NCBI GenBank assembly: GCA_001662655.1
Contig: KV460223.1
From: Pseudogymnoascus verrucosus
Taxonomy: Eukaryota
Length of the DNA stretch: 64,000 bases
Reading direction: 5' to 3' (one strand)
Each line of letters opens with the position of its first letter. The stretch's first letter is position 1. A model generated the notes under the pieces. It ran no database searches. It saw only the letters and a list, made by a program, of their open reading frames with translations, and was not told the origin of the DNA. The translations under genes were made by a program, and so were the position numbers. Positions 17,015-47,860 of this stretch are shown piece by piece.

Positions 17015-17938
17015 ATGCCATTCGTCACACTTTTCAACGGCCAGACCGATTACTTCGAAGTTGACGATTACACGGATCCTTGGAACCGCGATGAAGCAGA
17101 TATTGTGATATTTCAGCCAGGGATATTGCGACATACAGACTTTACATATCACCTGGTCCCTTTGATGTGCAGAGATGTACGATTTATCCGTCGTGATCTC
17201 CGGGGCCATGGGAAAAGCTCTAAAGGCGACGCCGAAGGCTATCAATACACTCTGACAACGCTGGTGGATGAGATGGCCGATTTTGTCGATAAGGTCGCGG
17301 GTCGTCCTGTTCACTGGATCGGAGAGAGTACGGCTGGGATGGTAAGCATCGCCTTTGCAGAAAAATACCCCGACAAGCTGAAATCTCTGATCATTATGTC
17401 GTCACCTCTCACATTGAAGTAAGTTTCTGTTACTGTTTTAAACTTCAAGTCGAGTTTCCATTGATAACTTGACAGTGACACATTTAAGAAGATGGTTTCT
17501 CAGCCATATGCGAGTCAGGCTGAGGCAATGCGAAAAATGGGCCTCGTTGAATGGCAGAAGTCCCGCCCAGTATCTAAACTGAGCTCGAATCCGAATGCTC
17601 CAAATACGAACGAGATGGGCCGATTCTCAGGCGAGAAGTATCTAAAATGGTACGAAGAAATGCTGGATCGACATGACGTGGAGGGTGTCGCATTATACTG
17701 TGCGTTTATTGCTGACGTTGATGTGTCCTACTGTCTTGAGAACATCAAGGTACCCACTCTGATTATGGCTCCCCGACACAGCATGGCTAGCCCTGTGAGT
17801 CTCAATGAGGAGATGGCGAGAAGAATTGAAAAGTCTCGCCTGGTCATTATCGATAGCGTCGGTCATATGTTGTATATCGATGAGCCTGAGAAGACGTGTG
17901 ATGCTATTCTTGGGTGGGTTACGGACATTCGAAAATAG
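17015..17938 (+). CDS. Alpha/beta hydrolase (enol-lactonase-like), 2 exons, 288 aa
   Basis: DLRGHGKS, nucleophile elbow GESTAG and C-terminal His (SVGHML). Intron 17419-17475 joins ORFs 17015 and 17492 in frame. Confidence 0.85.
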
Positions 17939-18078
17939 TGAAATTGTATCAATTTTCTTAACTCACCGGAGCTGTCTTCATTCAGAGGCTTTCATTGCGA
18001 GGTGTAGTCAGTGGTAAACCAATTTAATTTATATAGTCTTCATAGATACCCTACTGGCAATCTTGGAGCAATATCGAA

Positions 18079-19331
18079 TTAATTACCGAAGTCCTTAGAA
18101 AACAATGCTTGGCCCTTTGCTCCTGGTTTGACGTCTTTGCAACCCAGCCTTACTTGTCCCTCGTCTACTGATTTCGACATTGCCTCACCTAGCCACAAAG
18201 GCTGAGCTTTGTCCAAAGCGTCCTCAACCTCAACAATCTCATTGCCTCCAACGAAAAACCCTTTCCCTAGAATATATTTAGTTTCTGGCTGTTTCTCTGT
18301 GATCACAAGCAATAGTTTACCATTTATGGATTTATCTGTAGCAGGTAACAGAAGTGCTTTCGCCACACTAAGTGGCGTATTAGTTGGAAGAGGTTTCCAA
18401 AACTCTTCGATATTCTTAGCCATATTGGTCACTAGAGAATAGCGCAGCCCCATGCAGGGACTTTTAGTCAGTTGCGGTTAATATAGCGATAACAAAATAT
18501 GCAAGCACTCACGTGTCATCCAGGGTGCAACTGTATTCAGAGTCCAGCTGTCCTCAATAATAGCTTGACTTTTCAGGGCTCTCATCAGCCCGATAGCTCC
18601 AGCCTTAGCAGCAGACTAGGTCCACAACGGTGCGGATGGTAGATAACCTGCGGCTGATCCAGTCATGACTAAGGAACCAAATCCTTGTCCTGAGGGGTGG
18701 TTGCGGAAGTAATGGAGTGCAAGCTTGACAGCTATTGTACACTGTTAAATAATTATAGAACAAATGAGGTTGCAATGAAAACTAAAAGAATAAAACACTT
18801 ACTGTAGACAAGTCCCTTCAAGCAAACATCAAGAACGTGAAGTTTAGGTTCCGCTAATGATGTGCCATCTTGTTCGAGTTCATCAGAAAAGATGTCTTTC
18901 AACTCGGTTATGCCTGCATTTGCCAGCACGACGTCAATCTTGCCATGCAATTTGAATGCTTTCTCAAACATAGCGCGTTGATCTGCCCAGGATGTCACAT
19001 CGCAAAAGACGTAGGTTAGATTGCTAGGCCAGATTTATTAATACGAAGAGCTGTTTGGAATATCCAGAAGCAAAAGTAGAGTACCTGGTTTTTGAAACTG
19101 TCTCAATAGCTTCCCCGGAGACGCGATTTACATCCCCAAAAACGACCTTTGCACCACATTCTAATATCAATTAATCAGCTTGGGAACAACAGAGTATGAT
19201 CTTCAAAAACAGTTCATACCATCTGCAAACTCGACTGCAGCCTTGCCAATTCCTGATGCCCCTCCAGTGATAACAATAACCTTTCCTGAAATCTTGGTCC
19301 AGTCTGTGCCATCGATGTCAACCGTCGTCAT
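18079..19331 (-). pseudogene. Short-chain dehydrogenase/reductase with an in-frame TAG at the catalytic Tyr (probable recent pseudogene)
   Basis: TGGASGIG, ANAG and GSAAG motifs are present and the exons splice in frame. The YxxxK motif reads PLWT*SAAK (CTA on the + strand at 18616-18618). Confidence 0.75.
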
Positions 19332-19608
19332 TTTTATTGTGTTCGAAGAATGGGATTTCCAATGTTGTCAAATAGACACGCACATCACAGTACAGTACAC
19401 AACATATTTATATCCATATTCTTATGCGGGGTATCAAATTGATCTATGACCAGATTGATCGAACAGCACGGGGAATGTGGGTTGTCGGAGCCACCCCTCA
19501 TCACAATGAAATCCGAACGCCACATTTATAGCTGGAGAGGCATAATATTATAGACATAAACCAAAAATTTATTTAATTTACTGCCAATCCTACTGCTGTA
19601 TCTTAAAT

Positions 19609-20682
19609 TTACAGTTCATTCAACATAGAATCTGGCATAGTGCCTCCATCATTTGGTAGCCCGCCCAGAAACTCAACCTTCAACTCATACAGTCCTTGCT
19701 CACGTATTACACTCCCCATACTCGCAACATAACCAATGTCCTGTTCACAATCAAAGTACCTCCCCTTCAGTGCCGTACCTCGTCCCGCAGCTAGGAACAC
19801 GCATGTTTGTCCACACAATGCAGGCTCGCACTTGAATGCCTTGGTGAACTTGGCATAGGCGGCAGCGCCTTCTGGGTATGCTTCTGCAACATCCTGGTCG
19901 AGAGCTTTCTGTATGCCAGTCTTGGTCGCGCCCGGGTGTAGCGAGTAGATTTCGATGTCGTGGAATCCGTCCATGTCCTGCTCAAACTGCAAGCAACCGT
20001 TGGCGCGTACGAGTGCAGCTTTTGCAGCGGCGTAGTTGGCGCTGAAAGGACTGTTCACCGTTGCAGATCGAGAGGCGATATTGATAATCCTGCCGTGTCC
20101 GCGGCGCCGAAATTCAGGTATCAGCATGTGCGTCCAAAGCATGGGCTACGGCTAAGGGTCAGATGGTTTTCCTTTTCTCCTAGAATGTGATACTTTGCTT
20201 TTTACTTACTGCCTTGAAGTTCAAATCAATCATAGCCCAGAACTGATCAAAGGTCTCCATATGAAATGGTCTATCAATAGTCCTGCAACAATGTCAGCAA
20301 GAAGTACTTCTTAATATGGATCTCCTTACCCTCCAGCGTTATTCACGAGAACGTCCACCTCACCAAGGTCTGCCACGATCTGCTTCAACGTCTTTCTTGA
20401 CTCTACCGCATCCATAACATTGCAGAAGTAGCTTTTGACTTCAGCACCCAATGCCACACAATCATCCACTGTAGTCTGTAAGGCTGAGGCAGCGCGCTCA
20501 ATATCGAGCAGAGCAAGCTTTGCACCAGCTTTAGCGAATGCCACACATTCGCCACGTCCAAGGCCACCTCCAGCGCCGGTCAATACCACAACTCGCCCTG
20601 CTAGAGAGCCTTTCAGTGTTTCCACGCTGATGGCATCGTAGGGCTTCGTATTAATCGAGGGCTTTCGAATCTCGGCTGACAT
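19609..20682 (-). CDS. Short-chain dehydrogenase/reductase, 3 exons
   Basis: TGAGGGLG, VNNAG, NIAS and YAAAK motifs; two GT-AG introns near 20330-20283 and 20210-20150. Confidence 0.85.
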
Positions 20683-21414
20683 GTTGAGTTTGATTAGGGT
20701 GCAAGCTTTACAGGAGAAGTCAAAATTTTATGATGTGACAGCAAATTACATAAAACAAAATACTAAGGATTTAAAGGTTTGCGGAAACGATGGATTTCTT
20801 CTGTGTACCGAGACCATATTCGTCGAATATGGTCTCATATGCTTCAAGTCCAGACTCGGATATTGCATTCCAAGAGCCGAACCGCCGACATGGACGGCTG
20901 GCTCTATGGGGTAGGTCTAACTTAGAGCGGAGGCGGGGGTTTGCAGCCACCCCCACCCCCTCCCCCACCCCCACCTCCACCGCCACTCATCAGATCCCAT
21001 TATTGCTGCCATAATAGCAACGTCCATAATGCTAGTGCGTCTCCAAACAGTAATTATAGTCCCCATGTGAAGCGAGGATCCAGACACAATAGTTGGATGT
21101 ATAACCCTCGTGCTGCGGGGGTGTCTCGCCGTCCCATGCGTGGGATGCAAGCTTGATATCCACTGCCGCCGTTGCAAAATCTCAGTAAATAAGGGAACTC
21201 CACACAAAGTTGTGTTATGGAAACAGCATGTCGGTCCCTGTCTTTGACAAGTGGACTGTATCCCCCGCACAAGGCAAGATAATACTAGGCCCACCCCGCG
21301 ATACAAGTCACGCTGGGCGCCACATCAGCAAGCTTCTTCCATTCGAAAGTTGTTTCAATTTCTTTGAGATTTGATACCTCTACCAAATTTTCTAGACCTC
21401 ATTGTTATTTCATC

Positions 21415-23481
21415 ATGACGCTTAACGAAAGTGCTGCTGCTCATGCAGCGAGTTTTCTCTACCCACATGGATTTCCAACCGCCCCTTCGCCAATCAAAAT
21501 TATCACACTTGCTGCAGTCTTGATATTTACAATCAGCTTCTTCGTGAGGGGCAAGAAGACGAAGTACAGCTACCCCCCGGGCCCAAAGGGCAATTTGGTA
21601 GTGGGAAACACCTTTCAATTAGACCCTCGGTTCCCTGGTGCTAAATTCGCATCATGGGGACAAGAGTACGACGACATGTAAGTGCGATTCTATACCCGGG
21701 GCAAAAGTGTGACTAGTTTGCGTGGAGCTGATTCTTTCTCTGCGATAGGTTCTCTATATTTCTCGGTTCTACCAGATGGGTCGTTGTCAATTCCTCGAAG
21801 ATGGTGCGCGAACTGCTGGATCGGAAGGGTAAAATCTACCTCAGTCGTCCATACTTCCCGGTGACACAGGAAATCTTATCTGGTGGCATGCGAATTGTCT
21901 TGATGCCACATAGCGAGCGGTGGAGAAATCTGAGGAAGATCATGCATCAGCTATTGACTGCCAAAGCGGTAAATGATTGTAGCCATCTTTTGGATTGGGG
22001 GACTTGACGCTGATGAGCAAATAGGCCGATAGCTACAAGCCATACCAAGAAATTGAGTCGAGGAAGCTGATATGGGATTATTTAAAGGCACCTGAATTGT
22101 TCTACCTCCATGGTGCGCGATTTGCCAATTCTGGTCAGCAACATCCCCACCAATGAACACACAAACCGCTAACTTCGTTTTTTAGTTATCATGTCGGTGT
22201 AAGTTACTTGAAGTTAGATATCTAGGAGTATAGAGCTAATTCTCTGCGCTCAGTGTTTTTGGTCGAAGAAGTAGCATGAGCGAAGCAAATGTCAAGGAGT
22301 TATTCAGCTGCATTGACGAATTCATGAAACTGCAGGGATCGCCTTCAGCCAGCTTTATCGACGGATTCCCTTTCATCGCTCGATGGTTACCCGTGAGACT
22401 GCAGTGGTATCGACCGAAAGCTGAGAAGGTATTCCACGAAACCTTGAAGTAAGTTCTCGACCTTGATCTGTGTCATCTTCTTTATCTCAACTAAGAACCC
22501 TGAAAAAACAGAGTGTACGAGAACTTCTTCGACGATCTGCAGAAGCGAATCGATCAGGGCGAGAACCCGGAGTGTTTTGCGCGGTCTCTAGTCGACTTGT
22601 CAAAGCAGTACAACTTCAGTGACGAGCAGCAATATTTCTGTGGTATGTTTTCCAGATTAAAACGAAATGAAGTGCCCAGCTGTCAATCGACTAACTTTCC
22701 TATCAGCTGGTACCATCATTGAAGCAGGATCTGATACGACCAGAAATCAGATTAACCTCATGCTTGCAGCCGCAGCTAAATACCCGGAATGGGTAAAGAA
22801 AGCCCGACAAGAACTTGACAGTGTCCTAGGAGACGCCAAAAGACTTCCCGACTTTGATGTGAGTGCCAGCAAATCTGTACTTGCCCTCATAAGCTGACCA
22901 CCTTTGAAAGGATTGGGAATCTTTACCATACATACGGGCAGTTATGAAAGAGACTCTAAGGTGGCGCCCGAACATGATCGCGAGCGGTGTGCCACGCGTA
23001 CTTGTCGAGGATGATGTCGTTGGGCCCTACAGATTCGAGAAAGGCACCGTGTTTACGTGGAATCATTATGGAATTTCCCACGACGAACAAGAATACAAGA
23101 ATAATCAAGTATTCGACCCAGACCGATTCCTTAATGAGGATTTGAACGATATGTTGAAAGGACATTGGGGATTTGGCATGGGTGAGCATTGCCTAACTAT
23201 TTATCTAAACCAAACCATAGATTGGGATTCTAACTTTTGATGTAGGACGACGCGTTTGCGTAGGCTGGCATGTCGGATCTCGAAACATGTTCATTTCCTT
23301 CTCTCGCCTTCTTTACTGTTTCGATTTCGCGGAAGATCCATCGGAGCCCATCGACGAGACAAGGATTGATGCCTTTGCGCATAAAGCTGCTCCCTTCAAG
23401 CTCAATATCAAACCCAGGAGCCAGGCTCATGCTGATCTGATCGAGCGAGAATGTCGTGTTGCCGGCGAAGCTGTTTCGTGA
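21415..23481 (+). CDS. Cytochrome P450, 9 exons
   Basis: N-terminal TM helix plus PPGP, I-helix AGSDTT, ETLR, FDPDRF and heme motif WGFGMG/RRVCVG. Eight introns splice in frame, including a 13-bp micro-exon near 22186-22198. Confidence 0.9.
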
Positions 23482-23567
23482 AACGCAAGGACGGGTTCAG
23501 AAAACTTCTTCGTAAATAACCATTGAAATCTTTCAATAACCATAAAATAAAAAAATATGACTCAAAC

Positions 23568-26163
23568 CAGTGTTCCCCAAAATAGTAAGAGTATTTGTGG
23601 TTTTCGAATAGTATTCGGCGATGAGCAGTATTCAGGCCATATTTAGAGTATTCGGCGAGTATTTGCCTAGATCTCGAATAGTATTTGGGCCCTCGAGTCC
23701 TTAGCGCTAAGATGCCAAGCTACGAAGATTTTACCCCGCCCTTATAGATAGATCCGTAGAAATAGATCTGTAGATACTATATTACTTGATATTTCCACTA
23801 GAATGAGCGACTCTAAGTTATTAGCGATTCTAAGTGACGAAGATGAGGATATATAGCGCCTACTACCCCTTTTTCTAGAGTCTTCACCGTTAATAGCTCT
23901 ACCATTACTACAAATACAACTATAACTCCTAAATACTTAGTTACCGTTGTTCTTAAAGAATGTATTTAGTAGAACATTGTTAAGCACTAGCCCTATAACA
24001 ATAAAGATTGTCTGTATGTAAGATGGCTGTAATTATAGGCTAAAGCTAAAGCTTTTAACATAGAATATTACAAGTAATTTATAGAGGTATGTTGAGAGCA
24101 TGCATCCTTTATTATACGAAGCTATAAAACTAGGATCTTCATTGCTATAGCGTGCTTAGAGTTCATAGAGTTAGAGTTCACAGGATTCGTAGGGCGCTCT
24201 AAATATAAGAACTGCCTAAAACACCTAAGCATTCTTTACTCCTTAAGTAGGAGGATCTAGCTTAGTTCCTATCTCTCGATATAGAGAGTTATTACTTACA
24301 TTTATTGTATCTAATAACTTACTAGTAAGTCTAGTTAATCGGCCTTCGTTTCGTTAGCTTATTTACTAGCTTAGTCTATTAACGTTAGCTATATTAACAA
24401 GCTCCTTAATGCGCAATTTATATAAGACATTCTATAATTACTATATAAAGCTATAAATTGAACTCTAGGCTTATATAGCAAAGGGTAGATAGTTATTACT
24501 TACAACTAATACATAGTCTGTAATGAATGGCGTAGAGCACGCTATAATAACTATCTATTAGATAAATAACGAATAGGTTTACTAGCACTATGTTCTTAAT
24601 ATCGTACATCTAAAGGAGCCTATTCATTCTAGTAAATATCTTATAGAGCAGCTTTAAGCTGTTACTAATGACTTTAGTATTATACATAGAGTCTTTACTA
24701 TTACTAGAGATAACGCATTAAACAATACAGTAATGCTTATAGAGTTTAAAATAGGGGCATGCATAAGTGTTGTTTCTATGTAGCAACTATAGAGCTTTAT
24801 AGTAAAGAAAGGCAACGTCTAATGTATAGCACATATTATAAACCTTATAGTTTAAGTAGCTTTAACTATGTTAAAAGCTATACTATTAGAACAAACAGAA
24901 TTATATAGGCTTAAGTAAGGCTTAGCTTATACTTAAGGCTTTATTTCTAATTAAGAAGAAGTAGTAACAGTTCTTATAAAACTACGCTAGCATATCTATG
25001 TCTTTTAGAACTGTTAAGCGTAGAAAGATGTATTAAAAGTACAAGTATCTTCTATAGGTATTTAGGTAGTTTTAATGTCCCTTAACATGCCTATATAATA
25101 GAACTTAACATATTATATGCTTAAGAACGCTTTAAAGCTTAAGTAGCTAATTAATGCTTTATGTACTTTATAAACGATAGATTTAAGTATACGTAATATT
25201 ATTATTACGTTAATAGAATAGTAAGTGTTATATAGACTAAGGGCGTTCTTTAAGATATTTGTTAAACTAGTAGAGTAAGTTTAAGCTAATAGTTATCTAA
25301 CGTTAAACGTCTATATTATATACTATCTATAGCTTTTAAATAAGCTTAAGGTAATGTAAAAAGCTCTATTAACAATAGCTATAATTAGTGTAGCTTATAA
25401 AGTAGCATATAATAAGCTTAATACTTATTATAACCTTATAACAAATTAAGGCTTAAGCTACTTGTTAATTGCTACTATCTACAACCTAAGATTCAACCTA
25501 AGTATATATGAATTTTATATACTAGATAGTATAAACGCTATAAAACGAGATAGAGCAAGAGCATAGTTTACAGCTTGCTATAACTAGTATAAAGACTGTA
25601 AGAACGATATATAGGTTACTGCTATTAAAGCTACTATTACTACTAAAATAGAGCAGCTAGCGATCCTAAGAGAACTTGATTCTAACGACGAGATGTATTA
25701 GCATTGTAGGCCTTCTATTAAGGAAGTTAAGTGGCGACGATGGTTTAAAGAGAATAGGGTCAACTATAATACTAATATCCTTAAGTATTAGTAGGCAAAG
25801 TAGTATTAGTATCTAGTTATATCACGGATTACACGGGACTATTTAGCAATTCTAGCCTCATTGGTAGCGTTAGAGCGTATATTTAGTATTAGCAGTGATA
25901 TAGTTACAAAGAAAAGAAACAGGTTATTACCTTTAACTCTTCGATATCTACTCTGCCTACGGGATTGGGGGGTTATGGGCGACGAGGATAAGGAGTAAAG
26001 TAGAGTAGACAATTATCATATTTCATTACTATATACTATAGTATTCGGCGAATACTCAAATACTATTCGGCGAGTATTCGTACGAGTATTCGCCGAATAC
26101 TCTCAGATTACGAGTATTCGGGCAAACCCCGAATACTATTCGAATACTATTTGGGGAACACTG
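23568..26163 (+). mobile_element. Complete RIP-inactivated hAT DNA transposon (2596 bp)
   Basis: TIRs CAGTGTTCCCCAAA(A)TAGTA at both ends; 8-bp TSD ACTCAAAC at 23560-23567 and 26164-26171; subterminal GAGTATTCG/CGAATACTC repeats. Stop-riddled transposase with the hAT dimerisation motif (RDYLAI..ERIFS..KKRNRL..CLRDW) near 25830-25970. Confidence 0.95.
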
Positions 26164-26580
26164 ACTCAAACAAATATATTCTTAAGAAGTACATAGTTTA
26201 AATGTTTATTTTCAATTGCATTCGCCTTGAAAGCTTTTTCTTGCGAAGTTTTAGTAAATAGGGGCTACATATCTAAATATGGGCATTCGCCCAACCTCTC
26301 TTCTGTGCCGTTTTAAATGTATATGGAGAGTTTAAAGAAAATTTCATAAGCCTCTACCCTGGTTTGCCAAATTCGTCTCTATGTAATGAAAAGATAGTAC
26401 GTGGAGTCAATGCAGCATGTATTCAAAGCATGTAGAGAATAGAAAAGATGGCACAATAAAGGATAAATGTTTATTTGTCATCTAGAGGCACTTGTTCGTG
26501 TAAAACAGTTGAACATTGAAGATATTCAGATCTGCTACCCAAATATGTCTCTGTACTATAAAAAGAAGCTGGAATCTCTC

Positions 26581-28025
26581 TCACTCCTCGAAGTCATCAT
26601 CCATCACCTCGTTCATAGCTTTGGCCATATTTATGGTTGCCTCTGGATCATCAGTTATATTCTTAATAAAAGCCGCCCGCTTGGTCTTGAACTCATCGTC
26701 CTGACAGTGCAACCGGAGCTTATTCTCGATTGAGGCAGTATTCGTGTACTCAACAAAGGCCTTCTTTCTCACTGTAGAGTATCTCTCTAAGAGAGCTGCT
26801 GGATCGGGCTCATTCTTTGTCAATATTCGAATCATGCAGTTGCCGAGAGCAGTTGCATCAAGGAGGCCAGTTGTGAGTCCTAGGCCACCGATGGGATTGT
26901 TTGACTGCAAGCATCCATTTAGTATCAATACAACAAATCTGCAGTCTGTGCTTGGGTAACTTACGTGTGCTGCATCTCCTGTTAATACTACTCTACCGGA
27001 CGTCAACTTCTCTGCGACCCTTTGATGAGCCCAGTATGGATTTGCTGCAACGATCTTGTAGTTCAAAGGTCTTGGGCCAGGCATGAGTCGCTCCAGCTTT
27101 TCTGGTAGCTGAGCCAAGAGTTCTTTCTCGGGGATGCTGCAGCGGACACCAAATGCCACACGCCATAGGCCCTCCTTATCGATACGTGCAATCACGGCCC
27201 AATCTTCTTCATCGACCACCATGACGCCAGTAGAGTAGCCATGGCTCGCAAAATCGTACTCGATGTTGACTGCCATAAACCGGAAATCGTTCCACGTGAA
27301 GCCGCGGAAAGGAATACACTGGGAGCGGCGGACCGATGAACCAGCGCCATCTGCACCAATCAGATATTTGGCCGCAAAGTACTTCTCACCACGCGATGTA
27401 ACTGCTGTGATACGCACGCCGTTGTCATCCTGCTGAACGCCAGCAAAAGTATGGCTGAATTTGACATGGAAATTAGGAAGGCGTTGCGCGTGCTTCAGAA
27501 TCAAATGTGCGAGACGATCTTGGCCCGTGTTAATGCCTATGAATGGATATCGCTTGAAACTTTTTGGAACAAGGTTGAGTTTGACGGTTGTGAGAAGTTC
27601 GTCACCCTTGTTGTGGGGTGTGCGAAACTGAATGCCGTCGTTGTTCTGATGGCCGAGCTCGACCAGATCATCGAAGATGCCCACTTTTTCAAACTCATTG
27701 AGGACGATAGGCATGTACCTGAAGGGAGTATTAGTATAGGAAGCACCATCTCGAATATTTTCTACGAGGGGTTTATGACTCACGCAATAGCTCGTGGAGA
27801 CTCCGAGATTGCAGAACCACTCTCAATGACCAGTACATCGATGCCCTTCTGGGCCATTTTCAAGGCACAGAACAAGCCACTCGGTCCCGCGCCGACAACA
27901 ACGACATCGTGTTGCTCAAATGGATCGTCGGCAATTGGGTGCAGGTCCTGGCGGTATGTGGTTGAGTCTGGATCATCATTCTGCGGCTCGTGTGTTGAAC
28001 TACTGTTGTTGATTGCTGACGGCAT
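26581..28025 (-). CDS. FAD-dependent aromatic monooxygenase (FAD_binding_3, PheA/MhpA-like), 3 exons
   Basis: GAGPSG, GADGAGS.VR and GDAAH/..PIGGLGL..GLLDA fingerprints; intron 27783-27719 and a second intron near 26964-26905. Confidence 0.9.
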
Positions 28026-28570
28026 TGTGTGTGCTTAAGGAGACGGACGAGAATAGATGCAGAGGATTATGTCGAGGGGGGCGGTGAGGAGGACGACGAC
28101 ATATAAGGTTATGAGGGGAACCAGGCATGATCTGGCATGGATTGTGTATATATATTTCCTGAATAGGGGTCACCGTATGTGCACCATCCATTTTGAATGA
28201 CCAGTGTGAAGCAGCCGCACGACTACTACCGATTCGTATCACTGGATGTGAGGAGGGGTTGAATGGTGGCCCATCATCAGCTGGACCCGTGGGGGAGGCG
28301 GTCGGGGTGGGGTTCGAATGATGCGGGGGATGCGGGGCAGGAGAGGCTTACCACATCTGGGCACGGCAGGCTAGGGGCACACCCGCCCGAGTAAACCGAA
28401 AATCCCAACAAGGGAATGGCTGTGTGCATGGCTGCATCTGATACGCATAAAGTGCAATGCGAATGTTTTATTTATGCTCATGTTCTATTGTTTATCAGCA
28501 ATCTCTACACTGCGGAATTCGAGCCTCAACACCACAGCAACACAACACCACAACACCACAACACCACAAA

Positions 28571-37537: not shown

Positions 37538-40500
37538 ATGAATACCGTATTCTCAATTCACCGGCAGCATCAGCCTGCCTCACGGCGCAAATCAGTGCGA
37601 GATCATTCCGGACGCTTCGAATGTTCCCATTGCTCCAAATCATTTACGCGGTCAGAACATTTGAAACGGCATGAACGCGCCCGTGAGTATAATCCACGGC
37701 CCTTGCGCGTATTCCTTCTCTAATCGTTATTTCTCCGTAGACACCAAAGAGAGACCCTTTGCGTGTGTATTTTGCAGAAGAGCTTTCGTTCGAAAAGATA
37801 TTTTGTCCCGGCATCTGAAGTCCTTCCACCCAGATTTAGGAGGGCCTGGAGAAGATGGTGAAATCCAAGCCGAAGCACCAAGGTCTGCTGCACACCCGTC
37901 TTCAATCCTGGTAGACTTCCCTACTTACCGGGACAACACCGACTCCATTGCACAACGACGACCATCTCAAAGTAGCGTTTCGTCAGAAATATATGGTATG
38001 TATCTCTACCTCTTCTTCTCTTCCTCCGATATCGTCGGGCTAAATATATACAACAAAAACCGTGGCATACGTACTAGGCTAAATTTCAGTCGCAGGAGAG
38101 AGCCCAATATCTGCTACATTAGAATCAACCCGACCAACAAACATGACCACCGATCCAGCCTACCAGAACTCTGCGATACAATTATCGCAGCCTCAAAACC
38201 GGGTTGGTTCGGTGAGCTCGCCTTCCGACAAGTGCACACCGACTCATAGCCCCGGAACTGTACAGAATCGTTCGCCTCTGAACCCCTCTACTAATACGAA
38301 TACTCATCAAACAACCAATTCCGAAGACGTGGGTCTTTTCTGGACAGAGAGCCACCGGCTGATTGATAATGGGGATTTTCCGTATGATAATGGTGTTGGT
38401 AGCCCTAGTATCCTTGACGAAAATAATTTCGACCTGCTCAGTCGACCTCCTAATGGGCACACGATGCCTCGGAACTCAGCAGCAACAGATATACAGCATC
38501 GTTCGCCTCTGAAAACCTCTGCTACTACGAATACTTTTCAACCTACTAGTTCCGACAATGTGGATATTTTCTGGACAGAAGAACAGCGGCTAATTGATAA
38601 TGGCCACTTCTCATTCGATGATGGTGTTGGCAGCCGTGTGATCCTTGACAATAATGCATTCGGAGATTCTTATAGCCCTCTTTTCAGTCCCTCGAGCGTT
38701 CTACAATCATTCAGATTTCAGTCTGCAAGTAGTAATAATGGCCAGCTATTGTCTGATGCCGAGTTGTTGTCTAAGGCACCTGCAAGGGCAGATCAGTCTC
38801 ATCCCCCAGCCTCTGTGCAAAGTTTTCCTGCCCTAGGGGAGACCAGCAACAGCCAAAACACATCTACATCTAGTGCTGAACAAAGACTACGGTACATGAA
38901 CGGGGAAAATGAAAGAAGCGATAGCTCAGAGCAAAAGATGCCGTATGCTGAGAAATTGCATACTATATACCCATCGATTTGTTCCCATCCCGATTCACTC
39001 CCAACAACAAACGCATTTCTCCGGTACATAGACTTCTACTTCAAATATTGCATGCCACAGCTTCCATTTTTACATCAATTATCTTTTGATCTCTGGACAC
39101 AGCTTCCCGCCCTGACACTCTCGGTGGCATCTATTGGAGCGATATATGCGGCCGAGCATGAGACTGCGTTTAGCCTGCACTGCCTATCGAAGCGTATTTT
39201 GAAACAGTTTGAGGAAGAGACCGCATTTTCAAAATCGAAGACTCCTTTGGAATATGTACAGGCCGAATTTCTGAATATGATGTTCGCGGCATGGAGCGGA
39301 GATGCAAGGGGCGTTAAATATGCTAGCAATCTGCAGAGTTCAGTTGTCGCAGTAAGTTCTATATATCATATTTATGGCATCGTTGCTAGGCTTTTTGTGA
39401 AAACCTTGGACATTGGCTAATTGGTGGGTTTTACAGAAAGTAACCCATTTGTTAAAGGACGCTGAGACAGAGGTTGCAAGCAATATCAAATTAGGGACCT
39501 TGCCAGATGCCTTGCACGGATACGAAGAAGTTAAAAGGTAGGTTTCAGAACACCCATCCGTCACATATATCGCTAACATCTCCAGACTCTTCTATGTCGT
39601 TTACATCGTGTCCGTTGCTTTCAGTTCTGCTTTTGGTTCTAATCCATTACTATTCAACCATGATTGCTCAACTATACGACTTCCATGCGAGGAAGATGAG
39701 TGGACCCAGCAACGGCCAGGCCCTCCCGACGCTCTATTCACTGCGTCGATAACGCCTATAGTATTCGATGAAGCTCTGTCTATCCTTTCAACAGGGAAGA
39801 TCCATGATTTTGGTTCTTTTCAATTGCGCATTTTAATTGCTGCTGTTTATTTGGAATTCTGGCAAGCAGCTTGTCTTTCTCGGGTAGGCGACAATGACAG
39901 CAAAAGCCCTTGGAAAGACAAGATAAGGCAAATGCTTCGGGCGTGGAAGGACTGCTTTCAAGAAGGATCAGAGAGACGTAGGGCCACTGGTACGAGTGGG
40001 CATGGGGCGCTAACATCTGAACCCCCGCTCACATTTGATGCTTTGGCATTGTATCGACACGTTCAGGTTGAGCTTGCACTCCCATTGCGTGTCTTTGGCT
40101 TACAGCTTCGTGATTATGACATTGCGCCAGAAGCCACTGCTGGCGCCCTGTGGCATCTTCGAAGTCAAGTACATCGATCTCTTGATATGACAGAAGCTAT
40201 GAATTATTGTCTGGAGACCCTTCGGATACCTCTGAGTAAAGGGACGCATTTCGTCGCGCGCACAGGTCCGTTATACTGGAGCGTTGAGCATGTTCCTCTC
40301 GGATCTATCTTGTGTGTATTGCTCTGTCTTTGGACGAGTCGTTTCAACGAGGCCGATGCCGCACCGGCTGACGAAATGGAAGAGACCATTTTGCGGCGAT
40401 TGATAGACATGTTACGTGATGCCGGGTATCGGCCAAAGATTCATAACCTCCCTTCAGTAGTCGCTGAGGTTTGGGAGACTATGCTAAACAGCTCTTGCTA

Positions 40501-40626
40501 CGTTTGGAAGGGTAAGAAAATGCAAAGCGAATACCCTGCAATAGCGCTGACATGGAGGTAGTTACTCCGGAATATGCGAAGGTGTTTAGATCATGTGTGC
40601 AGATCTTTGTAAATACTGTATACTGA
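37538..40626 (+). CDS. Tandem C2H2 zinc-finger + fungal-specific domain transcription factor (Adr1/AmdA-like architecture)
   Basis: [50 protein letters not shown] across an intron; YF..MPQLPFLH and IRLPCEEDEW middle-homology motifs; several GT-AG introns. Confidence 0.85.
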
Positions 40627-41224
40627 TGATACCTACTTAATGTGCAATGCGGTTGGGGCCTAGCTGTGGCATGGTTTGAGATTGAGTGCTTGCAGGATGC
40701 GCAAGTTGCATACAACTCCGCTACATGGAGAAACGAATTTATGGCCTGAGATGACAACCAAATGGGGCTATTTATTAGAAAGCGGGCAGGAAATAGGAAT
40801 CCTTGGCTGCATGGCTGAGGTTCACCAGCGTCAGAAAACCCGCGCATCAATCGTTTGAAAGCGCGTGTACATTGGTTTGCATTTGAAGAGGCGCTGACTA
40901 TATGGATGCAGCTTTGATTGAAGGCTCATGGGTCACATTCATTCACACATTACAAGATCCGTATAATCTCTATGTCAGGCTCCTGTACAATTGTGACAGC
41001 TAGGAAGAATGAAATTGGCAAATAATTGCGAGATGAAATAAATATTCCATTCCTAACGATGATACACACTCTAAAGATTACAACCGCGAGGTAGTAATTT
41101 CTCTCGGATGAAGATTAACCAGATTCCATGCTCGGGTGTTTCAAGGACTGCAGACCCGAACAGTATAAACCCGGTGAGAGGTCTCGAATGACAGCAGGAA
41201 CATCCGTTTTAAGGCTCCCGATGT

Positions 41225-43337
41225 TTACTTTGGGGTGTATTTAGCCATCAAGTCCCAACGACTCCACATATCCCGGTTCTTCTTTCCAAAGATATCTTAA
41301 AAAGGGTGTTAGAATACAGATGTAGAGTGACCAATTATGCAGATTGAGACTTACACATTGGGACACTGGTCAGGATCATGGCTGCGGAAATACCACCGAG
41401 AGTGTAAAACACAGTCTGGGCTCCACTAGTGGTGACCCAGTCGTTGATAAAGTTCGAGAAGCCATAGAACAACAGGTTCTTGGAGAAGGATGACCATACA
41501 AACACCTCCGTAGCAATGTCAGGGAACGCGTCACTTTTGCTCATGTTAATCATCTATGGGTGGAAGCAGCACGTTGGAGGTTCGACTTACGAGAGGTATG
41601 AACTTCCAGCTGCGTTGCTCACGCAGACGCCAATAGCAGCTACGCCATAAAGAGCTGCACCTACGACATAGCCTTTCTCAGTCCCGATGGACCATCCAAA
41701 AAGGAAGTAGCCGAGAGGAGCCGTGGCCAAAGCAAGCATGAAAGCAGGAAGGCGAAATTCAGGCTCGTAGATACCGCCATTGCGTCGTGCGAGCCGCATG
41801 GCGATTTTGTCGTCGAGCCAGAACATGATACCACATCCAAGGATGGCTCCGACGAAAGCTATACCACGTTAGTACCTGCGACCCAGAACGATGATTCGGA
41901 ACAATTGTTACATACGGCCTGCAAATAGATAGCCGACCCCAGACGGGTTTAGCAAGTATGGTGGTGGGAAATAGATCTGAGCGAGAGTGAACGAGATGGC
42001 GACCCAGAAAGCCTGTTGCTGGTTAGAATCGGTTCAAAAAAAGGCTGTTATTGTACACTTACGGTAATCATAGATTGGGTTGCCACAACGAACCAAGTCG
42101 CGGGATTCAGCAGTACAAGCATGAGGCGAGCAAGCATAACCAAAGCGCGTTTTGGCTCTGTATACGTCCCGCTGAATGGAGCTAGAGATTGAAGATAGGT
42201 CTTTGGCTTGTAAACGGGAGCTGTCGATGGGGTTATAGAGGGTACTTCTTCATGAGCTGCGTTGATCTTTTCGTCCATGTTATGTTCAGTATTGAGCTGC
42301 GCAGTGATTTGCGCGTTGCGAGGAGAATTGAAGGTTGTCTCTGGAGCAAAGAAGACCACCATCAAGAAAACTATGACGGCAAAGATAAGATAAATGTAAA
42401 GATTCCAATGCCAGCCAAGATTGTTGGTGATTTGTCCCGCAATAAGAGGTGACAGGTTCGAAATGCCCGTAAGGACTATGATTACGCCTGAGATCCATGT
42501 TCCACGCTCATGAGTGAAGAATCTATAGTGCTGTTAGCCATGATAAAAATTCACAGACACAGCTATTAAGGCTCCAAATACTTACAGATCTACAATTGTG
42601 ACAAACGCAATCGACTCAAAAGCAGAGGCTGCAAGTCCAGTGACCAACCTCCCTGCTCGTAGTGTTGAGTAACTACCGGAGGAGAAGCTAGCAATGCAAA
42701 TGATAGTTGCAACGACGCTCATTAATGTTGCAAACAGGTATTGAGATCGTTTGCCATAGATACGAGACAAGATGGAAACGGCAATACTAAGACGTGTTAG
42801 CCTTGCAGAAAAGTACAATGGCCCCCCATTCAGATATGAGGTAAGAGATGTACTGACCTCCAGCATCCGCTAACTAACAGCGATTCCCCCGTGAGTAATG
42901 AGATAGCAGATATTGGAACGTGGAGATCTGCAGCGATTACGACTGTTCCTGCGGACAAAAGAGGCCCTGCAACGGCAGCACTGAGTATACCAGCTAGAAG
43001 GATTGTAGTAATGGTGGTGTACTTCTTGGTCTGGGCCCAGTTCTACTCAGTGTTAGCAATGGCTAGAAGCACCTAGCAGGCACAGATCTATCATACCAAG
43101 GGATCGTTTGGATCATCGGATGGTTGAGGATTCAGAATAATATGAGAGTACTGTTGCAAGTTAGCTTGAACGGCCTGTTAGGACTTGTACAAAACTCATT
43201 CATACTTTTCCACTACCATGCTTGAGGACTGAGACATCGAGCCCGATATCAACGCCGGTGTTTGCAGCGAGGTCATCTAGGACAACAGTTCCTCGAACAT
43301 CTCTGCCATGCCCCGGCTCGAGTATTCCCAGAGGCAT
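41225..43337 (-). CDS. Major facilitator superfamily transporter (DHA1/Hol1-like), multi-exon
   Basis: MPLGILEP..GTV, PQPSDDPNDPL/NW, YGKR, DLFFTHERG, PET, EPEFRL and IFGKK motifs across many exons. Confidence 0.88.
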
Positions 43338-44393
43338 GTTGAAGAGAGTCTGTTGTGTTATAGTTCTAAGGGAAGAAGAAAGAAGCGTAGCGTATAGTGA
43401 GAAGCTTCGCCAGAGAAAGAGAGTTGGAGAAAAAGCTGGGGTTTTGCGGGGAATCTGGGGTTTGCGGGGAATCTGGGGGAGTTGGATATATCTTTATAGA
43501 ATCACGACTCAAAATGAGGCAGACTGGTTTCTCTATAAAATGCCAAGCCCAAGGTCCAATACAATGTACAGGTGGTCCTTGTTTCTAGGGTGGCCTGGAC
43601 GTCGCCGGCGTTAAAGGATTAGTGTGATGGAAATCGATTCTAGGCTGCTTTTGGTTGCGTGAACCCCCGCCTACGGTGCGGGCTGCTCTGTTTGGGGTTT
43701 TAGAGGCTATTCCCAGAAGTAGAATGGATGCGGGGGCCATAATTGCTAGATCGGGTTAGTATAGCCCACAACCCACGGCACGCCCATCCCCATCTCCAGA
43801 CAAGGTCTTTACCCATCAACCAGATTGCGGGAATTTTTATTAATGCAGGTGCATGCGCACGGGAATTGAGGATTTGAAAGGTCCCGTCCCGAGAGCGTCA
43901 CAATTGTTAAGAGAGTAAAGTGTGATTTTTAATAGTTTGCTTCTGGATCATCATCCCCACTTGTCTCCATCAGTTCGCCGGTCTAGAACTCATTGGCTTG
44001 TCTATGCGGTCTCACGCCAACCAAAGCAATTATCGTACTAGTCAAATTTGAGGTTGCCCCGCACAGAAGCGGGGAGGCCCGTGGCTAAATTTCAGGTCTG
44101 TTATGTGTGGGGTTCGTCCTATTTCGTTACCCCAACACTCCATAGCTTTAAATCCACTAGTACTGTATGGGGGGATAACATGCATATGGGCCTTACTCTG
44201 GCAATTATCAGATTTGACTCCTATCTTCTCTTCATATGTTCCGTCTCCATCTTAGGTTTTAAGTTTTATTGGACTCATTCTTCCGTGAATTACTTGCGAT
44301 CTTCTGATTAATTTTTGAAGGTTGATCTTTCCGGGCGGGACTTCTCTTTTTCGAGATATTCAACTCTCATAGACATATCAAGAAAACACAACA

Positions 44394-45374
44394 ATGGACC
44401 CGGGTGTACAAAACCATGGTGTTCCAGCGACGGTCTCGGTCCATGCGATTTCTGCGGGCTCCTTGACTCTCCCCGAACGGTTCTTCGTTCATCCAGCAGA
44501 CCCGGAAGCTCGCAAAACTGTTCCCTCGTTATCATTTCTTATCCAGCACATGAATCCATCGACAAGTAAGATAACGAGGATAGTTTTTGACCTAGGCATC
44601 CGGCGACAAATATCAGCCTACTCTCCCGAAATCCAAGCACATGCACAAACTCGTCAACCACTCACCACCGCCCCAGATGTTATCTCATCGCTCGCTAAAG
44701 GAGGCCTAAAAGAATCCGATATTGACTATGTCCTCATCAGTCATGTGCACTGGGACCATTTGGGCATGCCGTCAGATTTCAAGGCGTCGAAATTTGGAGT
44801 AGGGGCCGGGGCATTGGATTTACTATCGGGACGCACCAAATTAACCAACGGGAGCCATTCTTATTTCGAGGCAGGAATATTACCACCATCCAGAACTTTC
44901 GAACTGCCAGACCCCCTTCAAAACGATTCGGAAAGCACGCCAAGTTACCCAAGACCAGAGATGTTCTGTGAAGCCTGGAAGCCGTTTCATGCTTTCCCTG
45001 ATACGATGGACATATTTTCCGACGGATCTTGTTATGTAGTTTCAGCGCCAGGCCATCTACCTGGACATATTAACATGCTCTGTCGCATATCCTCACATCC
45101 TTTGAAATATGTTTTACTCGCAGGAGACGCATGTCATGATATCCGTATTTTGACTGGAGAGAGAGACATTGCTACATGGAGTGATGAAAGACTTCCACAT
45201 GTCACCTGTTGTATCCATGCCAGTGTCCAGGAGGCAGAAAAAACTATCGAGACCATGAGGAAGGTTCAGAGAGATGGGCTTGATGGCGGAGAGGTGGAGA
45301 TTGTATTTGCACATGATGTGGATTGGGCAGCAAAGAGTTTAAAGGAGGGACGGTTCTGGCCTGGGCATCTATAG
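44394..45374 (+). CDS. Metallo-beta-lactamase-fold lactonase/lactamase (AHL-lactonase-like), 326 aa
   Basis: FDLG, HVHWDH (HxHxDH), PGHLPGH, GDACH and C-terminal AHD zinc-ligand motifs. Confidence 0.88.
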   Translation: MDPGVQNHGVPATVSVHAISAGSLTLPERFFVHPADPEARKTVPSLSFLIQHMNPSTSKITRIVFDLGIRRQISAYSPEIQAHAQTRQPLTTAPDVISSLAKGGLKESDIDYVLISHVHWDHLGMPSDFKASKFGVGAGALDLLSGRTKLTNGSHSYFEAGILPPSRTFELPDPLQNDSESTPSYPRPEMFCEAWKPFHAFPDTMDIFSDGSCYVVSAPGHLPGHINMLCRISSHPLKYVLLAGDACHDIRILTGERDIATWSDERLPHVTCCIHASVQEAEKTIETMRKVQRDGLDGGEVEIVFAHDVDWAAKSLKEGRFWPGHL

Positions 45375-45727
45375 AAACGTTATGTGGTTCTGTTTAACAT
45401 ACATGTGCCCTAATGACATAGTGTTATCATCCCTACCATATTTTCCATACTTCGATAAAACATCATTATTCACGAAGGTATGACAAATCAATACTCGAAT
45501 GCGTAAAAAAAAATCCCTAGAAGACGCTTAGCTTAAGAATGAGGCCATTCCTATAAGTCTCAAGAAATTGGCACAGATAAGATAAGGTTTGTAGGAATTA
45601 AAGGCAGTGAATTGTTCACATGTAGGTACAGAGAGACGTGGCAACAAGGACCAAACTCATTCCAAAACCACCGAATCCGTTCCCCACCCTCACAATTCCC
45701 ACTACCCGATTCATCATTTGCATCTCT

Positions 45728-46162
45728 TTAAGAAGAAGAAGTAGAAAATTCAATCTCTCCATTTTCTTTCATCTCCTTGATGACCCTCCGTGCAGTATGG
45801 AAAGCATCAACACCAGCCGGCACTCCAGCATAAATCATCGTGTGCCTGATGGCCTCGCTGATCTCGTCCTCCGTCAGTCCGTTCCGGATGGCCCCCCTCG
45901 TATGCACCGCCAACTCTGGTGCTCGATTCAAGCACATAAGAATCCCGATGTTGAGGAGGGAGCGCTGCTTCTTTGTGAGGCCTTCACGGCCCCAAGAGGC
46001 CCAGCATACTTCGGTTACGTATTCTTGGATTGGCTTGCCGAAACGATCGGACCCAGCCGCCAATGCCTTGTCAACGTAGGCGTCACCGAGGACTTCGCGG
46101 CGGATTTTGATTCCTTTTTCAAACTCGGCAGATTTATCGGGGGTTGTAGGTGCTGAGGCCAT
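45728..46162 (-). CDS. Carboxymuconolactone decarboxylase-like (CMD/AhpD family), 144 aa
   Basis: GIKIRREVLG..YVD, W.R.GL..KQRSL, ELAVH.RGAIRNG and YAGVPAG motifs. Confidence 0.88.
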   Translation of the reverse strand: MASAPTTPDKSAEFEKGIKIRREVLGDAYVDKALAAGSDRFGKPIQEYVTEVCWASWGREGLTKKQRSLLNIGILMCLNRAPELAVHTRGAIRNGLTEDEISEAIRHTMIYAGVPAGVDAFHTARRVIKEMKENGEIEFSTSSS

Positions 46163-46576
46163 GGCTGAATTTTGCAGTAGTAAGAGAGGACGAATTGTGG
46201 GGTGTTTGGCGTTGGACTTGAAGTGCTGGAAGATACAGGAGTGTTTTACGGCGGAACATTTACTGTTGCTTTTAAGGCCAAATCATTTATCTAACAGTCG
46301 GAGATCCCAATTCCGTATCATTGTTGTGCGGGGAGATCACCCGTTCTGGTGTTGGAACTATGAGGGGTTGTTTCGATGTGGAGAAATTATTGAAGTGGTA
46401 GCTTCAAGTGGGGTTGGGCCAGACACGCCCCAAATGTTTACCTTTGAATCCAGCAGTACAGTGTTTATTTATGAGCAACTAGGGCAGTGAAACGCAATTT
46501 TGCATTCGCTCATATTGACTACCTTTAATAACAACCCTGAATTGCTTGATTCAACTACGACTCAGCTTAGATCATA

Positions 46577-47591
46577 ATGGAGACGACCGGGCACTCACAA
46601 AACCTTCCTCTGGGGGACTATGGATTCATTGGTAAGTCAGAATTCTTGGACGACTTCGCAAACCTCCTCTGATCAACTCCTAGGGTTGGGGATAATGGGA
46701 TACCCCATGGCCCAAAATCTGCGTAAAGCACTACCTCCAACGTCAACACTTGTGATATGCGAACTTTCACAAAAACAGATCGATAAGTTCATCTTGGAAA
46801 CCTCGCAACATGGCCCCATCAAAGTCGTTTCCTCTCCCAAAGAGGTCTCCGATAATTCGGACTTCATCATAACTATGCTTCCAAAGGGGCCTCACGTCCT
46901 TGGCGTATTCACCAATCCAACGAACGGCCTCCTTGCTGCCGCTCCATCCGCATCGCCCAAATTCTTTTTGGATTGCTCAACCATTGAGACTGCCACATCT
47001 CTAAAGGTCGGAAAAGCAGTAGAGAGTTCTGGGCTAGGCCGATTCGCCGACTCTCCCGTCTCTGGGGGTCCAAATGGCGCCTACTCAGCAACGTTGACTT
47101 TCATGGTGGGTGGTTCGACAGAGATCTTTGAATTGGTTTCCCCAGTTCTGGCAACGATGGGGAAAAGAGATTCTCTTTTCCATTGTGGGCCAGCAGGTGC
47201 AGGACTTGCAACAAAGCAGATTAATAACTACCTCTCGGCTGTGAGCATTATCGGCGTTTGTGAGGCAATGAATATGGGAGTTAGATACGGGTTGGATCCG
47301 AAGATCCTATCAGGCGTTATTAATGTCTCCAGCGGGAAATGCTATAATTCACTCGACCAAAATCCAGTCAAAGGTGTTACGTCAACAGCAGCGGCGAGTA
47401 AAGATTTTGAAGGCGGTTTCAGTATGGAGCTATGCAAAGGTGTGGTGGAAATGGCAGTCCAGCTGGGGAAAGATGTGGGCGCAAAGAACGTCCTGTCTGA
47501 TTTGGTCATGAAGACATTTGAAGATGCTAGTCAGGATGAGAGGTGCAAAGGAAAGGACTGCAGGTCGGTTTATAGGTATATTTCCGAATAG
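46577..47591 (+). CDS. Beta-hydroxyacid dehydrogenase (3-hydroxyisobutyrate dehydrogenase family), 2 exons
   Basis: GFIG/LGIMGYPMA across an intron near 46632-46683; TMLP, DCSTI, DSPVSGG, LTFMVGG and KQINN motifs. Confidence 0.88.
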
Positions 47592-47701
47592 TCGATGTGG
47601 TTTTAGGTACACGGAGAATTGAAAGAGATATCATTTGAGTAAACAAGTATCAGCTCCTCCTATAAGGCGATATTCAGCCAAATAATATTGGGGTTTTCCA
47701 C

Positions 47702-47860
47702 ATGCTCGCGATAGGAGTAAACAAGGGACTTATAAGTGCTCCAGAGCTCCCATTCGGTGGAATAAAAGAGAGCGGCATAGGCAGAGAAGCCAGCAAAAAG
47801 CAAATACGGGTTTGCGGAATATCAAAACATCAAAACGGTAACAACAGGCAATATCCATAT
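47702..47860 (+). pseudogene. C-terminal remnant of an aldehyde dehydrogenase (succinate-semialdehyde dehydrogenase-like)
   Basis: [26 protein letters not shown], then frameshifted [17 protein letters not shown]. The N-terminal ~400 aa are absent. Confidence 0.7.

Follow-up and report, generated by a model that had tools for sequence, protein, structure and literature searches.

What does a row of oxidoreductase, hydrolase, transporter and regulator genes accomplish in a fungal genome when no enzyme that builds a scaffold stands among them? The question is raised by positions 17015-47591 of a 64,000-nucleotide stretch of Pseudogymnoascus verrucosus DNA (contig KV460223.1; C18:248001-312000 in our numbering of the ~30 Mb genome), called the window below. 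We find that this row is a real, conserved catabolic cluster that builds on the known methoxyhydroquinone pathway; its gene content, its recurrence, the placement of its families and a shared upstream motif are what the sequence shows directly. A first-pass annotation of the letters alone had proposed a dedicated aromatic catabolic cluster without a backbone gene and with its own transporter and regulator, and this proposal is borne out by a second copy on contig C24, by co-location of the genes in other genomes and by the motif. We further propose, with a probability of about 0.55, that the recurring cluster imports a lignin-derived dimer or lignan, cuts the bond between ring and Calpha, and degrades the ring via methoxyhydroquinone and the side chain via a lactonase, a dehydrogenase and a decarboxylase. 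A dimer or lignan is the probable substrate class.

Gene models were obtained with a simple splice-aware script of our own together with Pfam, and those of cytochrome P450 b, short-chain dehydrogenase (SDR) c, the metallo-beta-lactamase-fold (MBL) protein and the dioxygenase match public proteins. The cluster comprises 14 genes with five divergent pairs (Table 1), much as the first-pass annotation had it (about 14 contiguous genes, divergent pairs, no backbone); two corrections are that a 2.6 kb transposon interrupts the row and that SDR a is broken. PKS, NRPS, terpene cyclase and DMATS domains were found by Pfam in none of 201 stop-to-stop frames of the window (121 of at least 75 aa from 15-51 kb and 80 of at least 90 aa elsewhere, shorter exons lying outside the scan).

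That these genes belong together is indicated by their second assembly on C24. In a tblastn comparison over 70 kb, homologues of 12 of the 14 window genes were found within ~31 kb at ~280-317 kb of that contig, in reshuffled order and with 22-88% identity: hydrolase 37%, carboxymuconolactone-decarboxylase-family (CMD) protein 55%, MFS transporter 39%, MBL protein 42%, 3-hydroxyisobutyrate-dehydrogenase-like (HIB) dehydrogenase 42%, monooxygenase 29-42%, P450 b 61% and dioxygenase 83-88%. Only SDR b and the NmrA-like gene had no match there. The other homologues are another P450, two SDRs and a distant regulator. C24 also carries a second MBL gene and a second dehydrogenase, to which Pfam adds two carboxylesterases, a third esterase, an iron-containing alcohol dehydrogenase, an epimerase-like reductase and a P450 reductase. 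The alcohol dehydrogenase shares 44-48% identity with a bacterial protein annotated as maleylacetate reductase, and an esterase is 50-56% identical to esterases adjoining the dioxygenase in other fungi. The Pfam run covered 146 frames (129 from C24 and 17 from contig C85) chosen from 237 plus spanning frames, and backbone domains were absent from the 129 C24 frames scanned (of 198, plus spanning).

The families concerned are rare. As lower bounds, the genome has two loci each for the monooxygenase, the hydrolase and the non-canonical dioxygenase, three for the CMD protein, and four clear genes with two weak matches for the dehydrogenase. Each of these five has one copy in the window and at least one in the C24 cluster, and with only 2-4 copies per family in 30 Mb such double co-location is beyond chance. 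The C24 cluster (L008-L014) is the more complete copy and the better experimental target.

A common regulatory signal is suggested by the heptamer CCCCGCA, which was first spotted by eye in the window cluster, so that C24 serves as an independent check. In an unbiased ranking over the 6.6 kb of nine upstream regions it is the top-ranked 7-mer, with 18 copies and at least one in each of the nine, against ~1.2 expected from a background of 200 kb of unmasked genome (36 copies). The whole window cluster has 19 copies against 5.7 expected (3.4-fold, P 8e-6), the C24 cluster 13 against 6.5 (2.0-fold), with CCCC[AG]CA at 31 against 13.8 (P 5e-5), and the window outside the cluster 4 against 5.9. A masked background (0.6 expected) was dropped, since masking of long open frames made it under-count. 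No clear enrichment of CCCCGCA was found in the other fungal loci. The motif is compatible with a CreA/Mig1 site (SYGGRG) and with sites of Adr1/Tda9-type two-finger factors, and the cluster is probably co-regulated, with its C2H2 factor or CreA as the candidate protein acting through CCCCGCA.

The dioxygenase has the Pfam HgmA_N/C domains and, in alignment to human and Pseudomonas HGD, retains the His-Glu-His iron ligands. Its identities, taken from the public full-length protein P0270, whose sequence agrees with the window exons, are 44% to the canonical copy on C85 and 77-80% to Eurotiales proteins, among them Pc21g22500 at 78%. Its earlier label as HmgA-type gives way to placement in an MhdA-like branch. 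The C85 gene has the canonical active-site segment (SLHN, against SFEC in the cluster enzyme) and no cluster gene in the 12 kb around it, a stretch that ends at the contig end. In a FastTree phylogeny of 82 rows rooted on the C85 copy, the window and C24 dioxygenases fall in a Leotiomycete group that is sister (support 0.88) to a Eurotiales group containing the esterase-adjacent loci L060, L075, L079 and L080. In Aspergillus niger, methoxyhydroquinone is opened to an open-chain product by MhdA, a protein that is annotated as a homogentisate dioxygenase and shares 50.8% identity with A. nidulans HmgA; mhdA adjoins the gene for the carboxylesterase OmeA, and the pathway probably needs a maleylacetate reductase (PMC8336404). 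The tree in that source (Fig. S4) lists P. chrysogenum Wisconsin twice, once among the canonical enzymes and once in the MhdA clade, besides a third A. niger paralogue. Since one of the two entries is canonical, Pc21g22500 would be the other, and we infer that the branch of the cluster dioxygenase is the one that holds MhdA and not canonical HmgA. Phanerochaete enzymes also cleave methoxyhydroquinone (PMC11634970, PMC12420386). An OmeA-type carboxylesterase is found by Pfam in the C24 cluster and not in the window cluster, and neither cluster has hppD, fahA or maiA neighbours. The PDB entry 9pz4, a 496-aa HGD-family structure, is closer to the cluster dioxygenase than human HGD is and has no lid tyrosine.

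The FAD monooxygenase would supply the hydroquinone. Its best PDB matches are PnpA (E 7e-46) and HspB (8e-32), the next following at 5e-11; both enzymes exchange the substituent para to a hydroxyl group, giving hydroquinones, and HspB cuts an aryl-acyl bond. It is 24-39% identical to its nearest solved or annotated relatives, with a para-nitrophenol 4-monooxygenase and NdpD among 20 plasmid matches. MhpA models gave at most 71 bits against cut-offs of 390-1135, for a query that kept an in-frame intron and lacked the first exon, and a PheA/MhpA-type enzyme, as previously proposed, is thus replaced by one of the PnpA/HspB branch, predicted to be an ipso-hydroxylase that cleaves the aryl-Calpha bond.

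A survey of bacterial loci, in which alignment of 8 of 150 representatives led to 320 loci, places relatives of this monooxygenase in similar company. Among the best 80 of the 320 (34-42% identity), the CMD gene was present in 26, CMD and HIB in 9, both with MBL in 5 and all three with a P450 in 4; a VAO/PCMH flavoprotein was found in 17, and some alpha/beta-hydrolase, mostly not of the fungal subfamily, in 59. L124, L128, L182 and L193 (the last confirmed by Pfam) share the order P450-MBL-HIB-CMD-(VAO)-monooxygenase-hydrolase, and L178 has monooxygenase-HIB-CMD-monooxygenase-reductase together with GSTs, SDRs, a cytochrome c and a VAO gene. CMD is rare, with 2-10 matches per genome in five such bacterial genomes. 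Fungal and bacterial proteins are 46-58% identical for CMD, 34-39% for the monooxygenase, ~30% for the dehydrogenase and ~23-31% for MBL, and two representatives have the monooxygenase fused to a hydrolase. Three of the 20 plasmid matches were examined for their neighbours. On the Sphingobium plasmid pEP1 (L098, NZ_CP015988.1 ~175-183 kb), genes for succinate-semialdehyde dehydrogenase, P450, monooxygenase, MBL, SDR, esterase and CMD stand side by side, with an MFS gene as well, and this block offers a culturable bacterial model for the same chemistry. A Massilia plasmid has the monooxygenase with a flavocytochrome, annotated hydroxyquinol dioxygenase subunits and a maleylacetate reductase, and an Agrobacterium plasmid has it with a hydrolase, VOC proteins and a dienelactone hydrolase. 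The VAO proteins of L193 and L178 match PDB 9h40 best (643 and 711 bits against ~415 for other entries), an entry that is probably the Pseudomonas pinoresinol hydroxylase. Between CMD and monooxygenase, L122, L171, L172 and L178 have a MetE-like (Meth_synt_2) gene.

The CMD, MBL and HIB proteins would act on the side chain. The CMD protein scores 125.6 bits against a PcaC (TIGR02425) cut-off of 155.7, and the hydrolase exons 46.7 and 49.8 bits against a PcaD (TIGR02427) cut-off of 255.85; Pfam finds neither an intradiol dioxygenase nor a cycloisomerase in the window or the C24 cluster, and the product of MhdA-type cleavage is open-chain. Action of the two on ring-cleavage lactones, as the CMD and enol-lactonase labels had implied, is therefore unlikely. 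In the homologue at the fungal metagenome locus L052 the nucleophilic Ser of the hydrolase is Ala. The nearest solved relatives of the MBL protein are lactonases, a weak match at E ~3e-7; its single-exon gene encodes a protein that shares 98% identity with one from Pseudogymnoascus, the next matches standing at 76-77%. Further MBL matches at ~55% (Exophiala bonariae, Aspergillus nanangensis, Kalmusia) were rejected as cluster orthologues, which they probably are not since their locus tags do not adjoin those of the P450 or dioxygenase. Among solved structures, the dehydrogenase is nearest to 3-hydroxyisobutyrate and 2-hydroxymethylglutarate dehydrogenases. For the NmrA-like gene, a link to isoflavone reductases, which its first labelling had assumed, finds no clear support: its first exon matches generic NmrA clusters, with one lariciresinol-reductase cluster at rank 8, there is no PDB match, and the gene is absent from most related loci.

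These placements can be assembled into a route in which every reaction, like the substrate, is predicted from sequence. The MFS transporter would import the substrate, and a p-hydroxyaryl ketone would arise when a P450 hydroxylates a ring ether of the resinol or phenylcoumaran type at its benzylic position, when an SDR oxidises a benzylic alcohol, or through both. The PnpA/HspB-type monooxygenase would then hydroxylate the ring at its ipso position, which would free (di)methoxyhydroquinone and leave the side chain in the form of an acid or a lactone. The MhdA-like dioxygenase would open the ring to a maleylacetate methyl ester, whose breakdown a maleylacetate reductase and an OmeA-type esterase, both with candidates in the C24 cluster, would complete; the metallo-lactonase would open the lactone. 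Aryl-Calpha cleavage of any beta-linked dimer would leave HOOC-CH(X)-CH2OH, a 2-substituted 3-hydroxypropanoate. As this remnant has the substrate shape of the HIBADH family, the HIB protein may oxidise it to a beta-oxo acid, which the CMD-family protein would decarboxylate and an aldehyde dehydrogenase oxidise further. The model would cover most of the gene families, the hydrolase and the NmrA-like gene having no place in it. A reading of the lactonase and its neighbours as a gamma-butyrolactone pathway (AttKLM-like) was dropped, as it left the oxygenases unexplained.

In other fungi the parts of the cluster are found more often than the whole. Judged from accessions, Dactylonectria estremocensis, D. 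macrodidyma, Fusarium decemcellulare and Sporothrix eucalyptigena each have the dioxygenase adjoining a homologue of P450 b (61-62%). In a mis-fused record from F. albosuccineum it runs on into a reductase that shares 59-64% identity with the P450 reductase of C24. P450 b itself (30275-31225) is 76-82% identical to Dactylonectria and Eutypa proteins and ~60-64% to other Leotiomycete ones. In another Pseudogymnoascus isolate the MBL, dioxygenase, P450 and SDR genes are V501_08648, 08650, 08652 and 08653, and a 34 kb contig of a related organism covers 28000-47999 in two pieces at ~97% identity, which speaks for presence only. A metagenome scan with two dioxygenase exons gave 79 loci, of which 33, some redundant, are at least 10 kb long; an esterase stands beside the dioxygenase in nine of these 33. 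L070 has monooxygenase, dehydrogenase, MBL, P450 and reductase, with a regulator and another P450 by Pfam; L074 has MBL and dehydrogenase; L052 has MFS, SDR, a weak MBL, esterase, hydrolase and one FAD_binding_4 fragment; and L032, slightly shorter than 10 kb, carries monooxygenase, P450, MFS and regulator genes. A backbone gene, whose consistent presence in homologous clusters the first-pass annotation had named as counting against its reading, was found neither in the scanned C24 frames nor at 10 related fungal loci, where the scan covered 150 of 185 frames and two loci have a stand-alone AMP-binding enzyme.

Several observations weigh against the dimer route. Eighteen of the 33 long dioxygenase loci have no other cluster gene, only three (L052, L070, L074) have at least two of monooxygenase, HIB, MBL and hydrolase, and none has CMD; the dioxygenase is thus widespread, whereas the complete cluster occurs patchily. 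Many of the bacterial loci are closely related, so that CMD with HIB represents about three lineages, and the MBL, HIB and hydrolase proteins are only ~23-33% alike between fungi and bacteria, whereby the parallel may be convergent. The PCMH-like character of the Massilia flavoprotein implies that the monooxygenase family also serves simple alkylphenols. Around VAO relatives in 801 sampled genomes, the monooxygenase was found in one of 20 stretches and CMD in none, and a further plasmid example is without the module. In the window copy one SDR is broken, the aldehyde dehydrogenase gene survives only as a remnant, and neither an esterase nor a reductase is present. The MhdA placement is indirect, through Pc21g22500, the A. 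niger MhdA sequence not being among the matches, and the cluster dioxygenase keeps the lid tyrosine linked to homogentisate use. P. chrysosporium MHQD1 also accepts homogentisate (PMC11634970).

The rival that survives best, which we nevertheless consider unlikely, retains the same ring chemistry with a monomeric 4-alkyl or 4-acyl guaiacol or syringol (e.g. of the hydroxypropiovanillone type), or another substituted phenol, as substrate, the small released acid passing through dehydrogenase, decarboxylase and aldehyde dehydrogenase. It gains from the monooxygenase family occurring also with a PCMH-like flavocytochrome and hydroquinone-pathway genes, from P450 b and the dioxygenase being the pair most widely kept in fungi, and from one record in which a close relative of P450 b bears the name of AtE, an enzyme of the terreic-acid cluster. 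However, a monomer leaves unexplained why each cluster has one or two genes of the lactonase fold along with two P450s and several SDRs, and why bacteria have the MBL-HIB-CMD block.

More doubtful still is a homogentisate route, in which 2-aryl-3-hydroxypropanoate esters (tropate-like or isoflavonoid-derived) would be hydrolysed, oxidised and decarboxylated to an arylacetaldehyde, which oxidation and the P450s would carry to homogentisate. The HIBADH-like, CMD and aldehyde dehydrogenase genes, two P450s and an HGD-family enzyme would fit the bacterial tropate logic, 112 of 120 relatives of the dioxygenase retain the lid tyrosine, and the C24 cluster has esterases. The genome has a separate canonical HmgA, however, and the cluster dioxygenase has Glu where canonical enzymes have His (human H365); fumarylacetoacetase and isomerase are in neither cluster, while C24 has the maleylacetate-reductase-like gene, and the ipso-type monooxygenase would have no role.

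It is highly improbable that the genes are tailoring and resistance functions of a biosynthetic pathway whose backbone gene lies elsewhere. Biosynthetic clusters often contain P450, SDR, NmrA-like, MBL and monooxygenase genes, but no backbone domain appears in the scanned frames of the window, C24 and the 10 related loci, and the ring-cleavage and reductase genes and the bacterial catabolic neighbourhoods point to degradation. Least probable of all is that detoxification genes unrelated to one another have collected next to transposons as an accessory island. Two transposons, a broken SDR and a gene remnant may be cited for this, but recurrence of the same families in the reshuffled C24 cluster and in other fungi, with a common upstream motif, makes it hard to sustain.

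The transposon within the cluster bears repeat-induced point (RIP) mutations (TpA/ApT 1.6) and is presumably hAT-like. It has 15 genome matches, seven of them spanning at least 570 of 631 bases, and with at least seven long matches in the genome its presence at both clusters is probably a coincidence: the same family lies at the C24 cluster edge (~317420-320043, 83% identical). Just past the cluster, at 48021-50178, is an apparently intact terminal inverted repeat (TIR) element, free of RIP mutation and presumably Ginger-like, whose open frame of 626 aa has an rve integrase and an H2C2 zinc domain. A DNA search found no further match to the aldehyde dehydrogenase remnant elsewhere in the genome. 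Lacking esterase and reductase, and decaying, the window cluster may depend on the C24 cluster or may serve a variant substrate.

Table 1. Features of the cluster, in window positions.
Feature	Position	Strand	Remark
alpha/beta-hydrolase, 288 aa, 2 exons	17015..17938	+	GEST nucleophile elbow; distantly PcaD-like
SDR a	18079..19331	-	in-frame stop 18618-18616; pseudogene in assembly or assembly error
SDR b, 320 aa	19609..20682	-	YxxxK intact
cytochrome P450 a, 529 aa, 9 exons	21415..23481	+	haem motif intact
RIP-mutated TIR DNA transposon	23568..26163	.	8-bp target duplication; outside pathway
FAD monooxygenase, PnpA/HspB branch, 439 aa	26581..28025	-	predicted ipso-hydroxylase (aryl-Calpha cleavage)
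SDR c, 293 aa	28571..29599	+	YxxxK intact
cytochrome P450 b	30275..32021 (alternative start 30299)	+	family adjoins dioxygenase in several Sordariomycetes
NmrA-like atypical SDR, 347 aa	32788..34022	+	GC-AG first intron
HGD-family dioxygenase, MhdA-like branch	34289..35979	-	His-Glu-His iron ligands; predicted (di)methoxyhydroquinone ring cleavage
C2H2 (two fingers) + Fungal_trans transcription factor	37538..40561	+	3' end uncertain
MFS transporter, ~525 aa	41355..43337	-	3' end uncertain
MBL-fold hydrolase, 326 aa	44394..45374	+	HxHxDH motif
CMD-family protein, 144 aa	45728..46162	-	without CxxC
HIB-like beta-hydroxyacid dehydrogenase, 320 aa	46577..47591	+	from Pfam and nearest structures
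aldehyde dehydrogenase 3' remnant, frameshifted	~47666..47863	+	best model succinate-semialdehyde dehydrogenase
CCCCGCA motif, 18 copies over 9 upstream regions	16415..46576	.	e.g. 16853, 19426, 21263, 28323, 30051, 32478, 36161, 43446, 44057, 46328

The flanking genes are ordinary: a forkhead factor and a C2H2 protein on one side, NDUFA12, an SNF1-type kinase and an actin-family gene on the other. The long C2H2 protein gene upstream lies at 11217-15206 (+), a 756-aa frame without Pfam match at 1843-4110 (-) and a fragment matching the HeLo domain at 50668-50940 (-). Within the regulator coding region there is a 171-nt direct repeat (76%) at 38261-38662. Viral contigs gave no match.

The first-pass annotation did not recognise a described cluster here, and we likewise found no description of this fungal gene combination in the full-text literature, subscription papers lying outside that scope. 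Such a cluster does not appear in the excerpts of PMC3914699, bioRxiv 10.1101/184242, PMC11381361, PMC10832562, PMC13094099, PMC12388069 and PMC7617285, and a term search of the PMC13094099 supplement did not find pinoresinol. Fungal intracellular handling of lignin monomers has been assigned genes only recently. If the dimer route is true, it would provide a testable gene set for the resinol-dimer step in ascomycetes other than white rots, a function for the unexplained HIBADH-like/CMD pair, and an example of a cluster type overlooked by backbone-based finders; lignin valorisation would gain a flavoenzyme for ipso cleavage and P450s that oxidise lignans.

Among known systems, the fungal tyrosine-degradation (hppD, hmgX, hmgA, fahA, maiA, hmgR) and gentisate clusters likewise combine hydroquinone-type ring cleavage with a regulator (PMC3914699), whereas the window is without hppD, fahA, maiA and gentisate dioxygenase and its dioxygenase is of another branch. 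Closer are vhyA/mhdA/omeA of A. niger (PMC8336404) and MHQD1/2 of Phanerochaete (PMC11634970), which share the non-canonical HGD-family dioxygenase and, with C24, the carboxylesterase and maleylacetate-reductase-like partners. In A. niger, however, mhdA-omeA is a two-gene pair fed by a vanillate hydroxylase annotated as salicylate hydroxylase, while the window dioxygenase is one of 14 clustered genes, which include those for a PnpA/HspB-type monooxygenase, P450s, the lactonase-fold, HIB and CMD proteins, a transporter and a regulator. Fusarium solani is reported with similar chemistry by enzymes that are not clearly characterised (PMC12029670); in strain M-13-1, alpha-hydroxylation of resinols during syringaresinol degradation is known from metabolites (Kamaya 1981, cited in PMC12607616, PMC12029670). 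The pinoresinol route of Pseudomonas sp. SG-MS2 proceeds by alpha-hydroxylation, ring opening to a benzylic ketone and a putative ipso-hydroxylase to methoxyhydroquinone (PMC12607616, PMC12997858, PMC10795516, PMC11148156), and in this strain and Burkholderia sp. SG-MS1 the genes are clustered and co-induced. Compared by described chemistry, the route proposed for the window would share benzylic hydroxylation, ketone, ipso cleavage and methoxyhydroquinone with these bacteria. The entry step differs: theirs is a VAO/PCMH flavocytochrome, whereas Pfam finds no FAD_binding_4 gene in the window or C24 cluster and the fungus would use P450s. It is a tentative thought, held at somewhat less than even odds, that this cluster holds the genes by which ascomycetes cleave lignin dimers and lignans at the aryl-Calpha bond inside the cell, in a P450-initiated counterpart of the bacterial pinoresinol route, with the same families in fungi and bacteria and a general dehydrogenase-decarboxylase module that removes C-gamma from any dimer remnant.

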